Positions 14,520 through 53,295 of a stretch of DNA of 64,000 bases are shown here, one piece after another (position 1 is the stretch's first letter; each line of letters begins with the position of its first letter). This DNA comes from Catajapyx aquilonaris. Lineage: Eukaryota. Made by a program: the position numbers and the translations under genes. Below the pieces are notes generated by a model, which was not told where the DNA came from, ran no database searches, and saw only the letters and a list, made by a program, of their open reading frames with translations. The stretch is from positions 1 to 64,000 of the forward strand of contig JYFJ02000410.1 of the NCBI GenBank assembly GCA_000934665.2. The letters run 5' to 3'.

Positions 14520-14693
14520 CATTTCTAGTAACTGCTATTTCCAGTAACTGATATTTCTAACGATAGCTCTTTTCAGTACCGGCTATTTCGAGTAACCATT
14601 ATTTCGAGTAACACTTATTTCCAGCAACCGTTATTTCTAGTAACAGTTATTTCTAGTAGCCGTTATTTCCAGTTATTTCTATTTCCAGTAACT
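14520..14693. repeat. Degenerate about 16-bp minisatellite (AGTAACNGYTATTTC)
   Basis: About 10 imperfect units. Similar degenerate arrays lie at about 39385-39620 and 40345-40575. Confidence 0.7.
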
Positions 14694-17180
14694 CCTAATC
14701 ACATTTCCGAAATAAAGGGGAAAGAACTCAGGCCGTGGGGTATTGCAATAATTGAAAAGAAAACGCAGTATTCCACATGTTAAACTGCGTTGTCCGACAG
14801 TTTAATTCATATACCATTAATGATAGTATAACCTGTAATATCGCTATTAAATTATGCAAGTTATTCCGGACAAATAGAGGGCACAGACTTCAGCCAGTTG
14901 CATATAATGGTCATAATCTCACTGGGTTTATTTCCATAACAACGTGTAGTTTACTTCGTATGACTGGATAAGGGAAACTGAATATCTCACTTATCAAGCT
15001 GGCCCAAGGTTATCTGATGTTACCAATATAGGATCATGCGCATGTGGTGTGCAAATATCAGTTATTTCCCGTGCAATAAAAAACCACCACTTTTTTTTCC
15101 TTCGCATGATTCATACCGGTTATCAGCTCATAACAATGCAAAGTGCAGGGCATGTTCCCTGTTGTCATACTCCTTTTTTATATATAACAAAAAAAGGACA
15201 GGTCGTGGATAACAGGCTGAAGGACAATATCTCATGTGGTGAAACCCGCATATCACAAAGGTCAAAGGTCGCACTTCCTCTTGCAAGTATAGCTACATGT
15301 GAGCGAATAAAAAAGGGTCACAGAAGGTCGTGCGTGCATATATCCTGCGTGACTTTTTCCCCCCTCCCCTGTCCCCCAACCATTGATAACACAGAATCAG
15401 CTCAAACATACAGCATATGTTATAACGGTTATAACGGCCTTAACCTGTTTATTTATAAGCAGTTACTTAAATAATAAAAATAAAGCCGTTACTTAAATAA
15501 TACTTACGAATATTAGGGTGCCCCAGCTGAGACAGTGAATAGGGACTAATATCAGCAATTTAAACTGATAAAATTAGCAGATACACTAAACTGATAAATA
15601 AGCGGTTACTCTAAACTGTTAAAATAAGCAGTTGCTCTAACCTACTAAGATAAACAGCTTATGGCAAAAAAAGATTGGAACATATAAGGGTGAGCCAAAA
15701 CTCCATATCATCCAGCGTGTAATAGGTAGATAGCTCTGAAGCAAGTCAAAAATGTAGAGGTGTGAAATGTCGACAATCAAACTGATGATGACATACGACT
15801 ATTAGACACACGCTGCCACCCGCACGTAGCCTTTAACAGTGAGATAAATTATCGCCTGCGTCATTAACAGTTCCTGCACATTTCTTACCCTACATTCTAG
15901 ACTAGTTTTGACCAAATTTAACCACTGGATTTTCCTAGAGTTGTGATTCGTGCATGTAAAGCTGTCGCCCAAAATTGCAAGGGAGGAAAATAGTTCTGCT
16001 CCTGCTGCATTGTCGCAAAAGTTGTCTCTTCCGGCCCCACCATTTTTGCGTACAGTTCAGACTTTAATTTATAGTTAGGTGAGGTAAAATGAGACGAGTA
16101 GGGCCACAATGCGCATGCACTAATTAAGGGCTTGAGGGTGGCATGGTAGAGCTGACAGTGTCTCTTGGGCCCTTGGCACATATCGTGGCGGTAATTAGAC
16201 TCTTGGGCTCGAGTGAGGAAGCGGGGAGTTTGCCGATTTGTCATTTTTCACTCCTGTCCCTCTCTATCTCTCAGGCTCCAGACAGGTAGGAAAAGATGGA
16301 GCAGTTGGGGGATAGACGACCTATCTTCTCACACTCATTACAGCACAGGTATATTGCATTTTTGGAGCATGTAATAAATTCTGGGTGCGGTCCAGGTGTG
16401 ACGTGCGTTGAAGAGTGAAAAACTTAAATAATGTGCGCTCAGCGAGTAATCGTCGGAGGTACTCAAGCTTATTTGCACTTGGGAGAAATTGTCAAGTACT
16501 GCAGATAAAATGAGAAATTACATTCGTCTCGAGGGTACTTGACGTCATGTACTGTATGTGCTAATGTAACGAGCTTTGCCAATACAGATGTGAATGAAGT
16601 GGAAACATGCTTATAGCGTAATTAGTACAAAAATAATTGACCGGAACTAAACAAAACTTTTTTTTACGAAGGAATATCAAATTTAAATAATGGCTGATTT
16701 CAAGCAAAGAACATAAAATGTGTATGAAATCGGAGTGAATGAACTTCATGATTGTGGATTATTATTAAAAATTATCATATAAATTATTCTGCAATAAATG
16801 TATAATTTATAATGTAACTTATAGCATATGACAAAGTTTGTTTATCTATTTTACATCAGTTCCATACCCATCTTATGCAGTATCGTAATTCTATACGGTA
16901 AAAATAATAATACTGTATTAGTATAATGATGACTTTGATCTTACCTGAGTACCTGTGGAGCAATAACCATGAAGCTATAATAATGCGACCGATATACGGC
17001 AGTAATTGTCAATATCGCGACATACGTATTCATACGTGAGGAAATCTGTTCTGACGCACAAATACTGACAAAGATAAAATATTTGATTAAAACACAAGTG
17101 ATTAGCTTATTTCGACACTTCTTCCTCTTTGGTGTTTATCTGCAACCCTGTGTGCGCATTTCCTGATTCTTCGCGAAAAG

Positions 17181-17188
17181 TATATAAG
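17181..17188 (+). promoter_or_regulatory. TATA box of the lysozyme-like gene
   Basis: TATATAAG starts 45 bp upstream of the ATG at 17226, consistent with a short 5' UTR. Confidence 0.7.
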
Positions 17189-17225
17189 CGGAAGGTTAGG
17201 CCGTACAGATATTAATCAATCAGCA

Positions 17226-17914
17226 ATGATGGTAGGCAAGCTGCTTCTGTTCGCCTTCGCCTTGGGTTGCACCCACGGAGAGACATTCATCCAGAGATGT
17301 GACTTGGCCCAAAAAGTTCTGGAGAGCGGAGCACCCAAAGATATGGTAGCAGACTGTAAGTTTCATAAAAATTGTTTCAATAGTTCCAAAAGTCATTTTC
17401 GATAATTTAATTTGGCAGGGGTGTGTTTGGCATACTACCAGAGCGATTATCAAACTGATCTGAAGCGAGGGCCTGATCCAGACGGATCTTACAGCTATGG
17501 AGTATTTCAGGTGCTTTGAAAGTTTGATTGCTATCCAGTTGCAGTGAATTTGTTCAAGCCGCATTTTTTTTGCAGATTAATAGCGAATATTGGTGCACTC
17601 CACCATCAATGCACAACCTTTGCAAAATGCCATGCACCAGTAAGTCCCATATATGTTTTGTATTTATCCCCTTTTTTTTAACCTAGCCCGTATATTCAGG
17701 CCGCAACTCGATAAGGCCAAAGTATTGAGACAACCTGCATGAAAACTACCGTCGTTTTCGTTTTTCATCCCCAGAACTTTTGGACGCCGACGTCAGCGAC
17801 GACATAAAATGCGCGGAATTGATCGAAAGCTCCCAGGGATTTTGGGCATGGCCCGCATGGTCCCAGTTCTGTCAAGGAAAGGACCTGAGCAAATTTGTGG
17901 AAGGCTGCTTTTAA
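17226..17914 (+). CDS. c-type lysozyme / alpha-lactalbumin family (GH22) protein, predicted non-catalytic; 4 exons: 17226-17355, 17419-17510, 17576-17639, 17775-17914
   Basis: Manual splicing at GT-AG introns (phases 1,0,1) gives an intact 141-aa ORF: MMVGKLLLFAFALGCTHG-ETFIQRCDLAQKVLESGAPKDMVADWVCLAYYQSDYQTDLKRGPDPDGSYSYGVFQINSEYWCTPPSMHNLCKMPCTKLLDADVSDDIKCAELIESSQGFWAWPAWSQFCQGKDLSKFVEGCF. It has a signal peptide, the 8 canonical Cys, and the family motifs RCxLA, WVCLA, DGSxxYGxFQIN, YWC, DDIxCA and AWxAW. Confidence 0.95.
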
Positions 17915-17923
17915 ATAAATAAA
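17914..17923 (+). terminator. Polyadenylation signals (two overlapping AATAAA) of the lysozyme-like gene
   Basis: AATAAATAAA directly overlaps and follows the TAA stop, with T-rich sequence downstream. Confidence 0.65.
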
Positions 17924-18085
17924 AGAATGTGACTCAAAATGTGACTTTTGCATTATTGTAGCTTTTACTCCAAAAATAAAATATTTTGCAAACTGGTCTA
18001 ATATTTTTGTTGCGGTCAAAGTTCAAATCATATAAGGCGTTTATAGGGAAGGCGGAACAATATTTATTTATTTAAGAGCAAACAC

Positions 18086-18228
18086 AAAATGGGTATGAAT
18101 TTGGTATAAACCACCACAAAATGGGCATGAAATTGGTATAAACAACCATAAATGGGTATGAAATTGGTATAAACAACCATGAAATGGGTATGAAATTGGT
18201 GTAAACAACCATAAAATGGATATGAAAT
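18086..18228. repeat. About 31-bp minisatellite (AAATGGGTATGAAATTGGTATAAACAACCAT), about 4.5 copies
   Basis: Tandem units with few mismatches just 3' of the lysozyme-like gene. Confidence 0.9.
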
Positions 18229-21200
18229 GTGTTATAATAATTGACAAACAAACAAATTCTGCTTTTATATATGCGTAGATTTATTTATTTATTTATTTAT
18301 TTATTTATTTTTGAGAGTGAACCGTTTGACAAAATTTCGCAACACCGCACCGCCCTGCTTTCCCCCGACTGTCGACGCAGTGTCTCACACAGATGGCTCA
18401 TCCTTCCTCTCGACACATTATTGATGACTCATCGCGGACAAACAGAGGCACAGACCCAATTTCTTTTGATTTTCACTGATTCCATTACTTTTTCCTTACA
18501 TTTTGTTGCACTATTTGCTATTCTGGCGAACTATTCTGATTTTAGAAACACCTTGTTCATGTGTGTACCTCTGGGGATCACCAATACCAAACCCCATTGA
18601 TGTAAAAGGGCTAGAGTGGAGCTAGAACTAGGCACACACACAAAAAAAATGTAGAATCGAAAGTGAACAAGTTCTCTCGTGTGACACGAATAGCAGGGCC
18701 CGGACGCAACTCTGCAGTACGGAAGTCGTGGAGTTAAGGCTTTAAAGAATTTATTTGCTAATTATCACGTGCCGTGTGGGCTCCCTCTGGAGGCTGCCTG
18801 ACAGCGCTCTCAGCTCCAAATCACGCCCGGAAGGCTGCAATAATAATGACCCCTATTTTTTTCTCCTAGTGTTGGGGCTTTTATTCGAGCTCGGGAAAAT
18901 CACGAGTTCATAACATCAGTTTATAAAACCCTGGTTCAATATTCGTTCCGGTTGTTCTGCAACTAATGGCTCTTTTTGCAGAAAAAAAAATTATTTGCAC
19001 CCACTATTTTCTGGGCCATCAGCATCTATATTGCGCAAAAAATCCAGTCATGCAATTTCGAGCCTTGCAAGAAGGAAAAAAAAAGTTCATGCCGGAAACT
19101 ACTTTGCGTGCTTGAAGAATGTTACTTTGGATTTATGGGTCTGCTCATGGAGGTGAGCAGAACCATGCTTTAAAAAAATTGTATTAGAAGAAGGTAGAAC
19201 ATATCCACACATCATAAATGCAACGTATTAAAAATCTACGCACACTATAAATTAGCCTCACACTCCGGCTAAGTACATTCTATTACCACGCCGTGAAGAT
19301 AAGGATTAGAAACAAGGTTGTGTCGTAAACTACTTCGAAAGGTCATAGGGCTGGAAATAGGTGTTTATTTTCCCGGGTTCGATTAGTAGGTCCGAAATGG
19401 GGTGTGCGAGCCACACCTATCTCATGCTATCGGAATCTAGCATTAAATAGTCGATATGTGTGAGGACTGGTTGCCAGCCATGCAGTGTAGAGACAATTCA
19501 ATCAGCACATTTTTAATCATGTTGTCGAATCTCAGCTCGAAAAAGGTTATAGCTTCCATCATAGAATGTTAAGAAATATTCTGAAAATTACAGCCTGAAT
19601 AGAAAATTGGAACCTAGGGAGTGGCAAGTAAAGAAAGTGAGTAAATGAGGCCACCGACTGTGGTATCGCCTCTCACGGAGCACTTAAATTATGAGCTATT
19701 GTTTGCCCCAACTATATGGTCGTCGTAAAAGGAACCATAACGTCGGTATCACTCATGGCACGCGCATTTAGCAATCTTGATTTTTTGGTATACATTTTTT
19801 TTTGTGTGTGTGTAGCCATGGTGTTTGCCTAAAGTGGGTGTGACATCTGGAGGAAGCGTCGGGTAATCAGTAACGGTGGCGACATTTTTCCCTCGAGGAG
19901 TGGAGTTAACTAGTGTGATGAAATTACATGGGGTCAAATGGTGCAGTATCTAGCCTAGTCACACACCGGGACCAATCTAGCTCCGGATACATCTCTCCCT
20001 GACCCAAGCCGTCTTTTGGGCCATCCCGAAGCCGCGACTTGCATCCTGACCCGGGAACCGCAGATGCCCGGAATTGCTTTCCAGAGGAACATTTAGCTTC
20101 GGTCCACTTACAGAAAGACCTAAGATACAAAACACATTTCTGCGGGGGTTGAAACAAAAAAAAAATGTTTTATTGGCCAGGATTCATGTACAGGTCGCAT
20201 CTTGCTGGTTATTTTTATTTGTTATCCGGAGCTCCCAGAATTGACAAGAGGGGCCATAAAGACAGGGGGTGCAGCAGCGTGTTTTGCAATGCAACTTTGT
20301 AGACGTTAGCATGTCATTTCGTATTTTGCTTGCGCGGAGTGTAGTTTTCAGAGAGAGAGAGAGAAAAAAAAGTTAGAGCTGAGTCAACCTCGCCTGGTGC
20401 AACTGTGTTTGCCATTAATCACCGGGAAGCCGTATCTGTTGCAAACACCGTCGAAAGATCCGGGATAATTACAAGGCATTGTAAGCTTCAGTTTGCGTTC
20501 GTTGTCCTCAAAAGCCATGATGCTGCGAGACAGACGAAAAAATGAGGATTGACAGCAAATAGCAATTCCTGAGCTAGACAATGATTAGCAAGGATGATGA
20601 ATGACCTGGAACATGCTCTCGGTGTACGTGAGCTGTACATAGTATTATCATAATATATAGGTCTTCCTCGATGAACGAACCACCCTGTACATTTTCGTCG
20701 TGCCAGTGACTACCAGGACTTTATTATTGGAGAGAGAGAAAAGGAAAATACCATAAAAAGGAAATACCAGAAAAGATGTTCCAGATTGCAAATCCTTGGT
20801 AGCAGGAGGTCCCTTCAAATGAAGCTAGATTTCTTTGGCTATGTGTCCCTCCCTTCCCCCTTTTTTGTCGGGTTTGCTTTGACCTGAGGGCGAACCGAGA
20901 CGTGACTGGGAACAGCTCTCGGAGAAATGCCAGGGCTTGGCGGTTGGTCCCTTTGAGGTTTTTATATCATTTCCTTGCTGCTGGGGGTCGCCTCTAAAGG
21001 AGATTACCCCTAGTGTTACGTGGTCAGTTTATCTCTGAGACCGGAATGTGCCTGAACCTCAGGGGGGAGGGAAAATCAGAAAAAATGATAATAATAATTT
21101 ATTATTTGATCTCTACATACGTTGTGACAAAAGAATGTTCCAATTACTTGTCGAAAGTTCAGTTATATCCAATAGCTGTCAACATAGCTATAATTCGTAG

Positions 21201-51960: not shown

Positions 51961-52030
51961 TCCCGCAAACAATGCTTCTTGTCTACTGAGACATGGGACT
52001 TAGAAGACGTCGAAGGCGGTCTATGGCCCC

Positions 52031-52307
52031 ATGACCCCAGGTCACCTCTGGCCACGGGGGCTGTGGCACAAGCGGCCCCCACCACCCTCCCCCAACCCGA
52101 ATCCGGGTCACCACAGTAACCCGCTGACCTCATCCCGCATCCTCCTGGTGCTGTTTCTTCTGCTGTGTGCAAACGGACCCCGGACGCTCCGGGCCAGCGA
52201 GTTCCCGGAGAGGGAATGCTGTGACCCGGTTTATCCGGGGCCCCCGCCCCCGCCCCCCGCTTCCACCACACCGGAACCGATCATCACCACAGCCACCGGA
52301 TTACCAG
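52031..52307 (+). CDS. Gfrl: First coding exon of a secreted/cell-surface protein, tentatively GDNF family receptor-like (Gfrl); no further exon identified in this window
   Basis: GC-rich ORF segment of 92 codons plus 1 nt ending at the donor CCAG|GTAAAT. It encodes a hydrophobic signal-like core (RILLVLFLLLCANG), then SEFPERECCDPVYP and a Pro/Thr-rich linker. The reading frame past the donor becomes AT-rich repeat. The SEFPERECCDP motif is recalled from arthropod Gfrl N-termini, so the identity is from memory and needs BLAST confirmation. The exon itself is more certain than the name. Confidence 0.6.
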
Positions 52308-52319
52308 GTAAATTTTGTT

Positions 52320-53295
52320 TAAAAAATCGCGAAATTTTGCCAAAAATTGAGAAATGGTATGGGAAGTCCCCAAAATGTGCGATGGAGATTACACGTTTTC
52401 AGCAAAATCGTTATGTGACATGTGCAAAGTTTTCTCACAATTCGTGAATTTTTTTGCACAGTTTACGAAATTTTGCGAGGAGTTGAAAATTGCAAAAATG
52501 TGCGCAGTTGAGAAATTGTATGGAAAGTCGCCATACACATTTATGAAGCAAATTTGTTACGTGACATGTGCAAAACTTTGGCACAATTCGTGAAATTTGC
52601 ACGATTTGCAAAATTTTGCGAGAAAATTTGCCCAATTGAGAAATTGTATGGGAAGTAGCCAAAATATGAGATGTGTGGAGGGGATCACAGCTTTTCAGCA
52701 AAAATTTTCTGCGACCTCTAAACAACAACAACTGTGTGTAAAGATTTTCGCAAAATTCATAGTTCGTGACAAGTTGCAAAAAGTGCGATGGAAGTCACAC
52801 ATTTTCCGCAAATGTCTTCTGTAATCTTTCACACTGTCCGAAAATGAGAAAATTAGCAAACTGTGCTGAAGTCACATAAGTCGACAAAACAGTACGACAG
52901 CGTTTCTTAGCCACCTTTTTTGAAGAATTCGCGAATATTCGACGATAAAGGACGGGCCTTGTTCATTTATGACGTCATTTTTATATTTTTAGGGTGGGAA
53001 ATAATTGAGACAGTTGGAAATATAATGCAAAAATGTGCGATGGAGCTGACACATTTTCCGCAATATTTTCGCATATTTCTGCAAAAGTTTTGTATATTTG
53101 TGCAAAATCGTTTACACATATGTGCGAAATTTGCACAATTTGCGCTGTGGTCGTCCCAGTAGTGAATAGTCGACCCAACAGCACGCCAGCGTTTCTTAAC
53201 CACCATTTTTTAAATTCGCGAATTTTCGCGGACAAAAGTCGCCTGATATCAGAGTTGCCTTTCAGAGTGGGAAATAATTCAGACAGTTGGAAATA
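52320..53295. repeat. Degenerate AT-rich tandem repeats at the start of the intron
   Basis: TTGAGAAAT(G/T)GTATGG(G/A)AAGT recurs at about 52348, 52509 and 52637. About 52880-53020 is duplicated at about 53165-53295. Confidence 0.65.

Follow-up and report, generated by a model that had tools for sequence, protein, structure and literature searches.

We find, in the genome of Catajapyx aquilonaris, a single-domain c-type lysozyme homologue in which both catalytic residues of the family are replaced, Glu35 by Gln and Asp52 by Ser. The gene lies in the window (the whole 64,000-nt stretch of DNA analysed here) and is referred to below as the window gene. We put the probability that it has lost catalytic activity and has been selectively retained at roughly 85%. 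A retained pseudo-enzyme, as proposed in an earlier note made from the sequence, is the best reading of a spliced transcript, of a frame and a cysteine set that stay intact at saturated divergence, and of the roughly 0.1% activity known for the E35Q mutant of hen lysozyme.

Table 1. Features of the window gene (positions in the window; residues in hen lysozyme numbering)
Feature	Position	Strand	Content	Basis
TATA box (putative)	17181..17187	+	45 nt upstream of ATG	sequence
Exon 1, coding part	17226..17355	+	ATG at 17226; predicted signal peptide (about residues 1-18); first mature Cys	
Exon 2	17419..17510	+	catalytic region: Gln35, Asp46, Ser52	PF00062 29-57; PDB alignment
Gln codon CAG, replaces general acid Glu35	17439..17441	+		sequence; PDB alignment; X5 contig
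Ser codon AGC, replaces nucleophile Asp52	17493..17495	+		sequence; PDB alignment; X5 contig
Exon 3	17576..17639	+	Asn59, Tyr62, Trp63 and three Cys kept	both junctions in X5 contig
Exon 4, coding part	17775..17914	+	Asp-rich calcium-loop-like motif; three Cys; stop TAA at 17912-17914	PF00062 78-123
Exon 4, cleft residues	17775..17914	+	Ile98, Ala107, Trp108 kept; Pro at 109	PDB alignment
AATAAA, first copy (putative polyA signal)	17914..17919	+	directly at stop codon	sequence
AATAAA, second copy (putative polyA signal)	17975	+		sequence

The window gene comprises four exons and three GT-AG introns (63, 65, and 135 nt), which splice to 426 nt encoding 141 amino acids with zero internal stops. 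Nine cysteines are encoded, eight of them in the predicted mature chain; the signal peptide was predicted from hydropathy and from alignment with paralogues. A clean spliced frame with eight cysteines had been described in the earlier note, and its ATG, two catalytic-site codons, stop, TATA box, and polyA signals were all found where it had placed them. The phase-1 intron after exon 1 splits a Trp codon, as it does in most paralogues. The assignment to the GH22 family, for which a Pfam alignment had been suggested, also holds: exons 2, 3, and 4 match PF00062, with exon 4 alone passing the curated cut-off on its own (36.9 bits; cut-off 27), and the best lysozyme C matches in the PDB have E-values down to 9e-10.

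Exon 2 aligns with solved c-type lysozymes without a gap, placing Gln on Glu35 of the chains and Ser on their Asp53, which we take to be the hen Asp52 position. This rules out a misalignment of the catalytic positions. Both the general acid (Glu35) and the nucleophile (Asp52) of active GH22 muramidases are thus missing. A single base separates the CAG codon from its counterpart GAG in the nearest paralogue, and two bases separate AGC from the GAC that all intact paralogues have. Two further changes affect the catalytic centre: Asn46 has become Asp, and Pro aligns with Val109 of the PDB lysozymes, a residue that a passage in PMC5668862 assigns to subsite D, adjoining the catalytic pair. As summarized in PMC11576321 (citing Malcolm 1989), hen lysozyme retains 0.1% activity as E35Q and about 5% of its lytic activity as D52N. 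By inference from these hen mutants, the window-gene protein is predicted to have no muramidase or chitinase activity. Its two replacements are ones used in laboratory studies of hen lysozyme, where the D52S protein was reportedly crystallised and examined with oligosaccharides.

Both codons recur in the four sequencing runs compared, out of five listed, none of them as RNA. Across 17000-18100 there are no differences in three DNA runs of the probable source sample. Run X5 comes from another sample and another study, with no library type on record; in it, one 214-nt contig covers 17419-17824, skips introns 2 and 3 at GT..AG, and starts with 8 overhanging nt identical to the last bases of exon 1. 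Over 206 aligned bases it has no differences in exon 2, none in exon 3, and two in exon 4, at a depth of 897 that we do not take as an expression level. Because the introns are removed precisely and the window gene has only one DNA match in the assembly, a transcript is the simplest source of this contig. The single match also means that no retrocopy or recent duplicate was found. Since the spliced contig carries both codons unchanged, an assembly error and a silent gene are both ruled out, and the agreement of DNA runs and spliced contig on both codons likewise rules out RNA editing. Loss of both residues, the central claim of the earlier note, therefore stands on the gap-free alignment and on identical codons in the genome and X5. 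GAG and GAC, which it had held would speak against that claim if seen in reads, were looked for and are absent from the three DNA runs and X5, and the splicing that it had predicted is seen in the join of exons 2, 3, and 4.

Around this altered centre, most conserved residues of the family are kept. All 8 conserved Cys columns are present, and 26 of the 32 columns that most intact lysozymes share (at least 80% of 27) are unchanged, including all 8 Cys and 4 Trp. The six changes fall at positions 35, 46, 52, and 60 and in two conservative swaps, so that it is mainly the catalytic centre that has been damaged. The hen lysozyme table in PMC5104373 gives Gln57, Ile58, Asn59, residue 62, Trp63, Ile98, Ala107, and Trp108 as chitotriose contacts. 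The window gene keeps 57, 58, 59, 63, 98, 107, and 108 and has Tyr at 62, while Asp101 is not kept in the PDB alignment. These kept cleft residues are no proof of sugar binding, because they are also fold-core residues and are retained in most dead homologous domains.

The mature chain is acidic (pI 4.40, net charge about -8, with 10 Lys/Arg against 18 Asp/Glu). Because the sister paralogue is acidic as well (pI 4.7), the acidity is older than the catalytic loss. The aspartates of the Asp-rich loop align with the calcium-loop aspartates of milk-isozyme lysozyme chains, which we take to be residues 82, 87, and 88 in lactalbumin numbering. We dropped this loop as a special lactalbumin-like trait: it is ordinary, occurring in 312 of the 424 homologous domains of the protein set described below.

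A PF00062 search of the genome gave 15 matches among 28 candidates scored, and with neighbouring stretches 15 open gene models could be built, all predicted, with canonical or GC-AG splice sites. Three pairs of models differ by just 2, 7, and 5 bases and look like alleles, which leaves 12 genes as a lower bound. Five of the 12 keep both catalytic residues, three keep only Glu35 (with Asn at 52), and four have lost both: the window gene, C5301a (Gly/Arg), C2572 (Gly/Tyr), and C2458u (Val/Ser). C5301a and C2572 have a Glu one position before 35. The window gene is alone on its own contig, apart from the C5301/C8824 cluster. It shares 54% identity and the same three intron positions with C5301c; the intact acidic paralogue C5301c/C8824c differs from it in having none of Gln35, Asp46, Ser52, or Pro109.

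Several other members of this family are unusual in their own right. C8824 and C5301 share blocks of 92-97% identity, as if they were two versions of one lysozyme cluster. The intact C8824x occurs in one contig only (L018:2487-3828 in G000:C8824, against L017:4893-4930 in G000:C5301), which may be a presence/absence polymorphism or may reflect a second cluster. A basic lysozyme at L017:5402-6092 and L018:4284-4975 keeps Glu35, has Asn52, Asp46, and a GC-AG intron, and is a candidate for a shifted catalytic carboxylate. C5301a (L016:2053-5565) and C2572 (L020, minus strand) form a diverged lysozyme-like pair (tree support 100/99) with Gly35, long introns, and neither Trp63 nor Trp108: a separate dead lineage. 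In G000:C2458, two very diverged, acidic lysozyme-like genes with 9-10 Cys lie in tandem (L021:375-971 and L021:2511-3112), with a shortened beta-hairpin and, in one of the two, loss of both catalytic residues. Another acidic lysozyme-like gene (L019:3391-6192, G000:C674) has Asn52 and fused exons 2 and 3; an additional intron interrupts it at Trp108, and its C-terminus is extended by about 35 residues.

To place the window gene among its homologues, we used a set of 173 proteins (the best 150 of 1524 profile hits plus 25 earlier proteins) with 424 lysozyme domains; all frequencies below refer to this set, which is skewed to multi-domain proteins. Of the 403 domains ungapped at both positions, 239 have the full catalytic pair and 113 have neither residue. 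Glu35 is most often replaced by Gln (53 of 125 non-Glu domains) and Asp52 by Ser (34 of 156), and these two replacements occur together in five domains. The first domain lacks both residues in 61 of 98 multi-domain lysozyme proteins (P0026-P0148). Double loss is thus ordinary, both in this genome (4 of 12 genes) and among homologues. Only 2 of 74 single-domain proteins lack both residues, and a single-domain Gln35/Ser52 protein was looked for and not found among the 173. Nor did these include an orthologue, the best identity being 41-45%; among named database entries, the nearest are lysozymes of ticks, spiders, scorpions, ostracods, and insects. Exon 4 alone, used as a query against longer proteins, gave 0 of 10 candidates scored, and a profile based on the paralogues gave 25 of 58, with double loss in none of those aligned.

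Pro109 tracks the dead domains of this set. Among domains with a residue at that position, none of the 227 intact ones carry it, whereas 36 of 108 dead ones do, as do 7 of 38 that keep Glu alone and 3 of 11 that keep Asp alone. These counts are not independent, since 31 of 48 carriers are first domains of multi-domain proteins. Asp46 occurs in 15 of the domains that lack Asp52 but in only 3 of the 254 that retain it. Because of its link to dead domains, Pro109 could offer an extra marker for pseudo-lysozymes, with the proviso that its carriers are mostly relatives of one another. A literature search covering mostly open-access papers, by terms other than species, found no paper on the window gene or on Pro109 as a marker.

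Divergence from the nearest paralogue, C5301c, is saturated at synonymous sites (pS 0.86) and lower at nonsynonymous ones (pN 0.30), which would point to selective retention. The ratio of 0.35 (bootstrap 0.26-0.45) is pairwise to a paralogue and cannot separate the time before the loss from the time after it. When the coding sequence of the paralogue was randomly substituted to a distance of 0.5 in 5000 trials, the frame stayed open in 0.3% and all Cys were kept in 0.02%.

In a tree of 36 proteins (two partial ones left out), C5301c/C8824c is sister to the window gene (support 94/81), and C5301c is once more the nearest row in a second tree, whose 32 rows include dead domains. Two other placements survive the AU test, one with C5301d (p 0.38) and one with four dead domains of multi-domain proteins (p 0.14), and the sister relationship is favoured, not established. 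The window gene has a branch length of 1.31 against about 0.38 for its sister, and relative-rate comparisons gave 16-21 unique changes against 5-8, with χ2 > 3.84 for five of six outgroups. The window gene is probably a duplicate of an active acidic paralogue of the C5301c/C8824c lineage. We infer copying by DNA duplication, because all intron positions are kept. The catalytic loss is probably of independent origin.

Such a history, with duplication of the active acidic paralogue, faster evolution, and four catalytic-centre changes (35, 46, 52, and 109), is part of our preferred account. We give about even odds that the product is secreted and binds GlcNAc polymers (chitin oligomers or peptidoglycan) in the retained cleft without hydrolysing them. 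An acidic protein, predicted to be secreted and to fold as a four-disulfide lysozyme, would with Gln35 and Ser52 be unable to protonate or attack the glycosidic bond, and might still hold GlcNAc chains, lectin-like, in the non-catalytic subsites of the upper cleft. Its role could then be an immune one, such as that of an opsonin, or that of a secreted protein associated with chitin. Against this account stand the loss of Asp101 and the charge of about -8, which is unfavourable for anionic cell walls. Rat lysozyme-like proteins without the catalytic pair, in the results excerpted from PMC5017655, bound peptidoglycan more weakly than the proteins in which the pair is intact, and for some of them the ligand was hyaluronan instead. 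Their poor peptidoglycan binding also favours the main rival, that the dead lysozyme has been kept to bind, in a secretory or reproductive tissue, either a protein partner or some glycan that is neither chitin nor peptidoglycan, on the model of SLLP1, LYZL4, or alpha-lactalbumin. The sections of PMC5104373 on the mammalian proteins add that SLLP1 and LYZL5 are likewise acidic (pI 5.2-5.6) and that LYZL4 shares Pro at 109, reading Ala-Trp-Pro at 107-109. The faster evolution of the window gene would also fit this rival, as would the lack of kappaB-like sites in its 600 nt upstream. The missing site does not discriminate, because 13 of the 15 gene models, some of them intact, have none either; four upstream GATA sites against 2.6 expected are uninformative. 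Nor does the calcium loop help the lactalbumin parallel, being so common. We consider this rival somewhat unlikely.

The remaining alternatives have lower standing. A non-enzymatic antibacterial protein like silkmoth BLLP1 and ALLP1 is improbable: the part of PMC10115842 that treats non-enzymatic killing by lysozyme attributes it to the cationic nature of the protein, so that cationic killing is unlikely for a mature chain of pI 4.4 and charge about -8, and the trees favour an intact sister within the genome, with no sign of membership in the lepidopteran clade. Slightly less credit still goes to a recently inactivated duplicate that is decaying while still transcribed. The long terminal branch would suit decay, as would the lack of an orthologue among the 173 proteins and a catalytic loss that may have come late on that branch; yet four changes at the catalytic centre have come with no stop, frameshift, splice-site damage, or loss of Cys or Trp, and the spliced transcript of a second sample differs at only 2 of 206 aligned bases. 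Least probable of all, to the point that we would be surprised by it, is a rewired enzyme in which Asp46 (or Asp37 or Asp48) serves as the catalytic carboxylate on another substrate. Asp46 does accompany the loss of Asp52, in the window gene and C5301d/C8824d and across the homologous domains counted above, but C5301d retains Glu35 whereas the window gene has a Gln that provides no general acid (E35Q, 0.1%; as summarized in PMC11576321), and Pro109 marks dead domains. As a broader idea, and a doubtful one, Gln35, Pro109, and the loss of Asp52 might together be a repeatedly selected switch to a glycan-binding or enzyme-modifying protein, reached independently here. If so, the window gene, as a free single domain that has a calcium loop and an acidic surface, would be an arthropod parallel to alpha-lactalbumin.

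Non-catalytic c-type lysozymes are already known as a class in insects and mammals. The window gene shares the eight-Cys fold, cleft residues, and Asp-rich loop with ordinary arthropod lysozymes (Ornithodoros, Darwinula, Centruroides, Liphistius, and others among P0001-P0009; 41-45% identity for the best database proteins of the 173-protein set) and differs from them by Gln35, Asp46, Ser52, and Pro109. With the dead domains of the multi-domain proteins, which presumably resemble Anopheles lysozyme c-6, it shares Gln35, the Gln35/Ser52 pair of five domains, and the frequent Pro109. Unlike them, it stands as one free domain, and the trees place it beside an intact paralogue. Lepidopteran BLLP1 and ALLP1 are, as characterized in part of PMC8071013, also single-domain c-type homologues without the catalytic residues; immune induction and antibacterial action are reported for those proteins. 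SLLP1, LYZL4, and alpha-lactalbumin are likewise non-bacteriolytic, and SLLP1 is acidic with both residues lost (PMC5104373). Its replacements differ, being Thr or Ala at 35 and Asn at 52. All three proteins belong to vertebrate lineages of independent origin, and sperm or milk roles are theirs. The dead copy and its intact acidic paralogue, at 54% identity, make a clean natural pair for asking what survives catalytic loss.

In its surroundings the window gene is on its own. There is no second lysozyme domain in the 64-kb window, the single 141-aa frame having its own stop and polyA signal, and neither a Pfam match nor a linked pathway gene was identified in the 10 frames scanned of the 32 long open frames. 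Tandem repeats with 16-nt and 32-nt units flank the window gene at 14521-14712 and 18055-18244, and the 32-nt unit has a related copy in inverted orientation at 16850-16877. An open frame at 52004-52447 (+ strand), with no Pfam match, has a hydrophobic signal-like stretch, a Cys-Cys motif, and a proline run, and is probably the first coding exon of a long-intron gene. At 220-702 there is a duplicated stretch whose translations resemble sequence within the first intron of C2572 (L020), which suggests a dispersed repeat.
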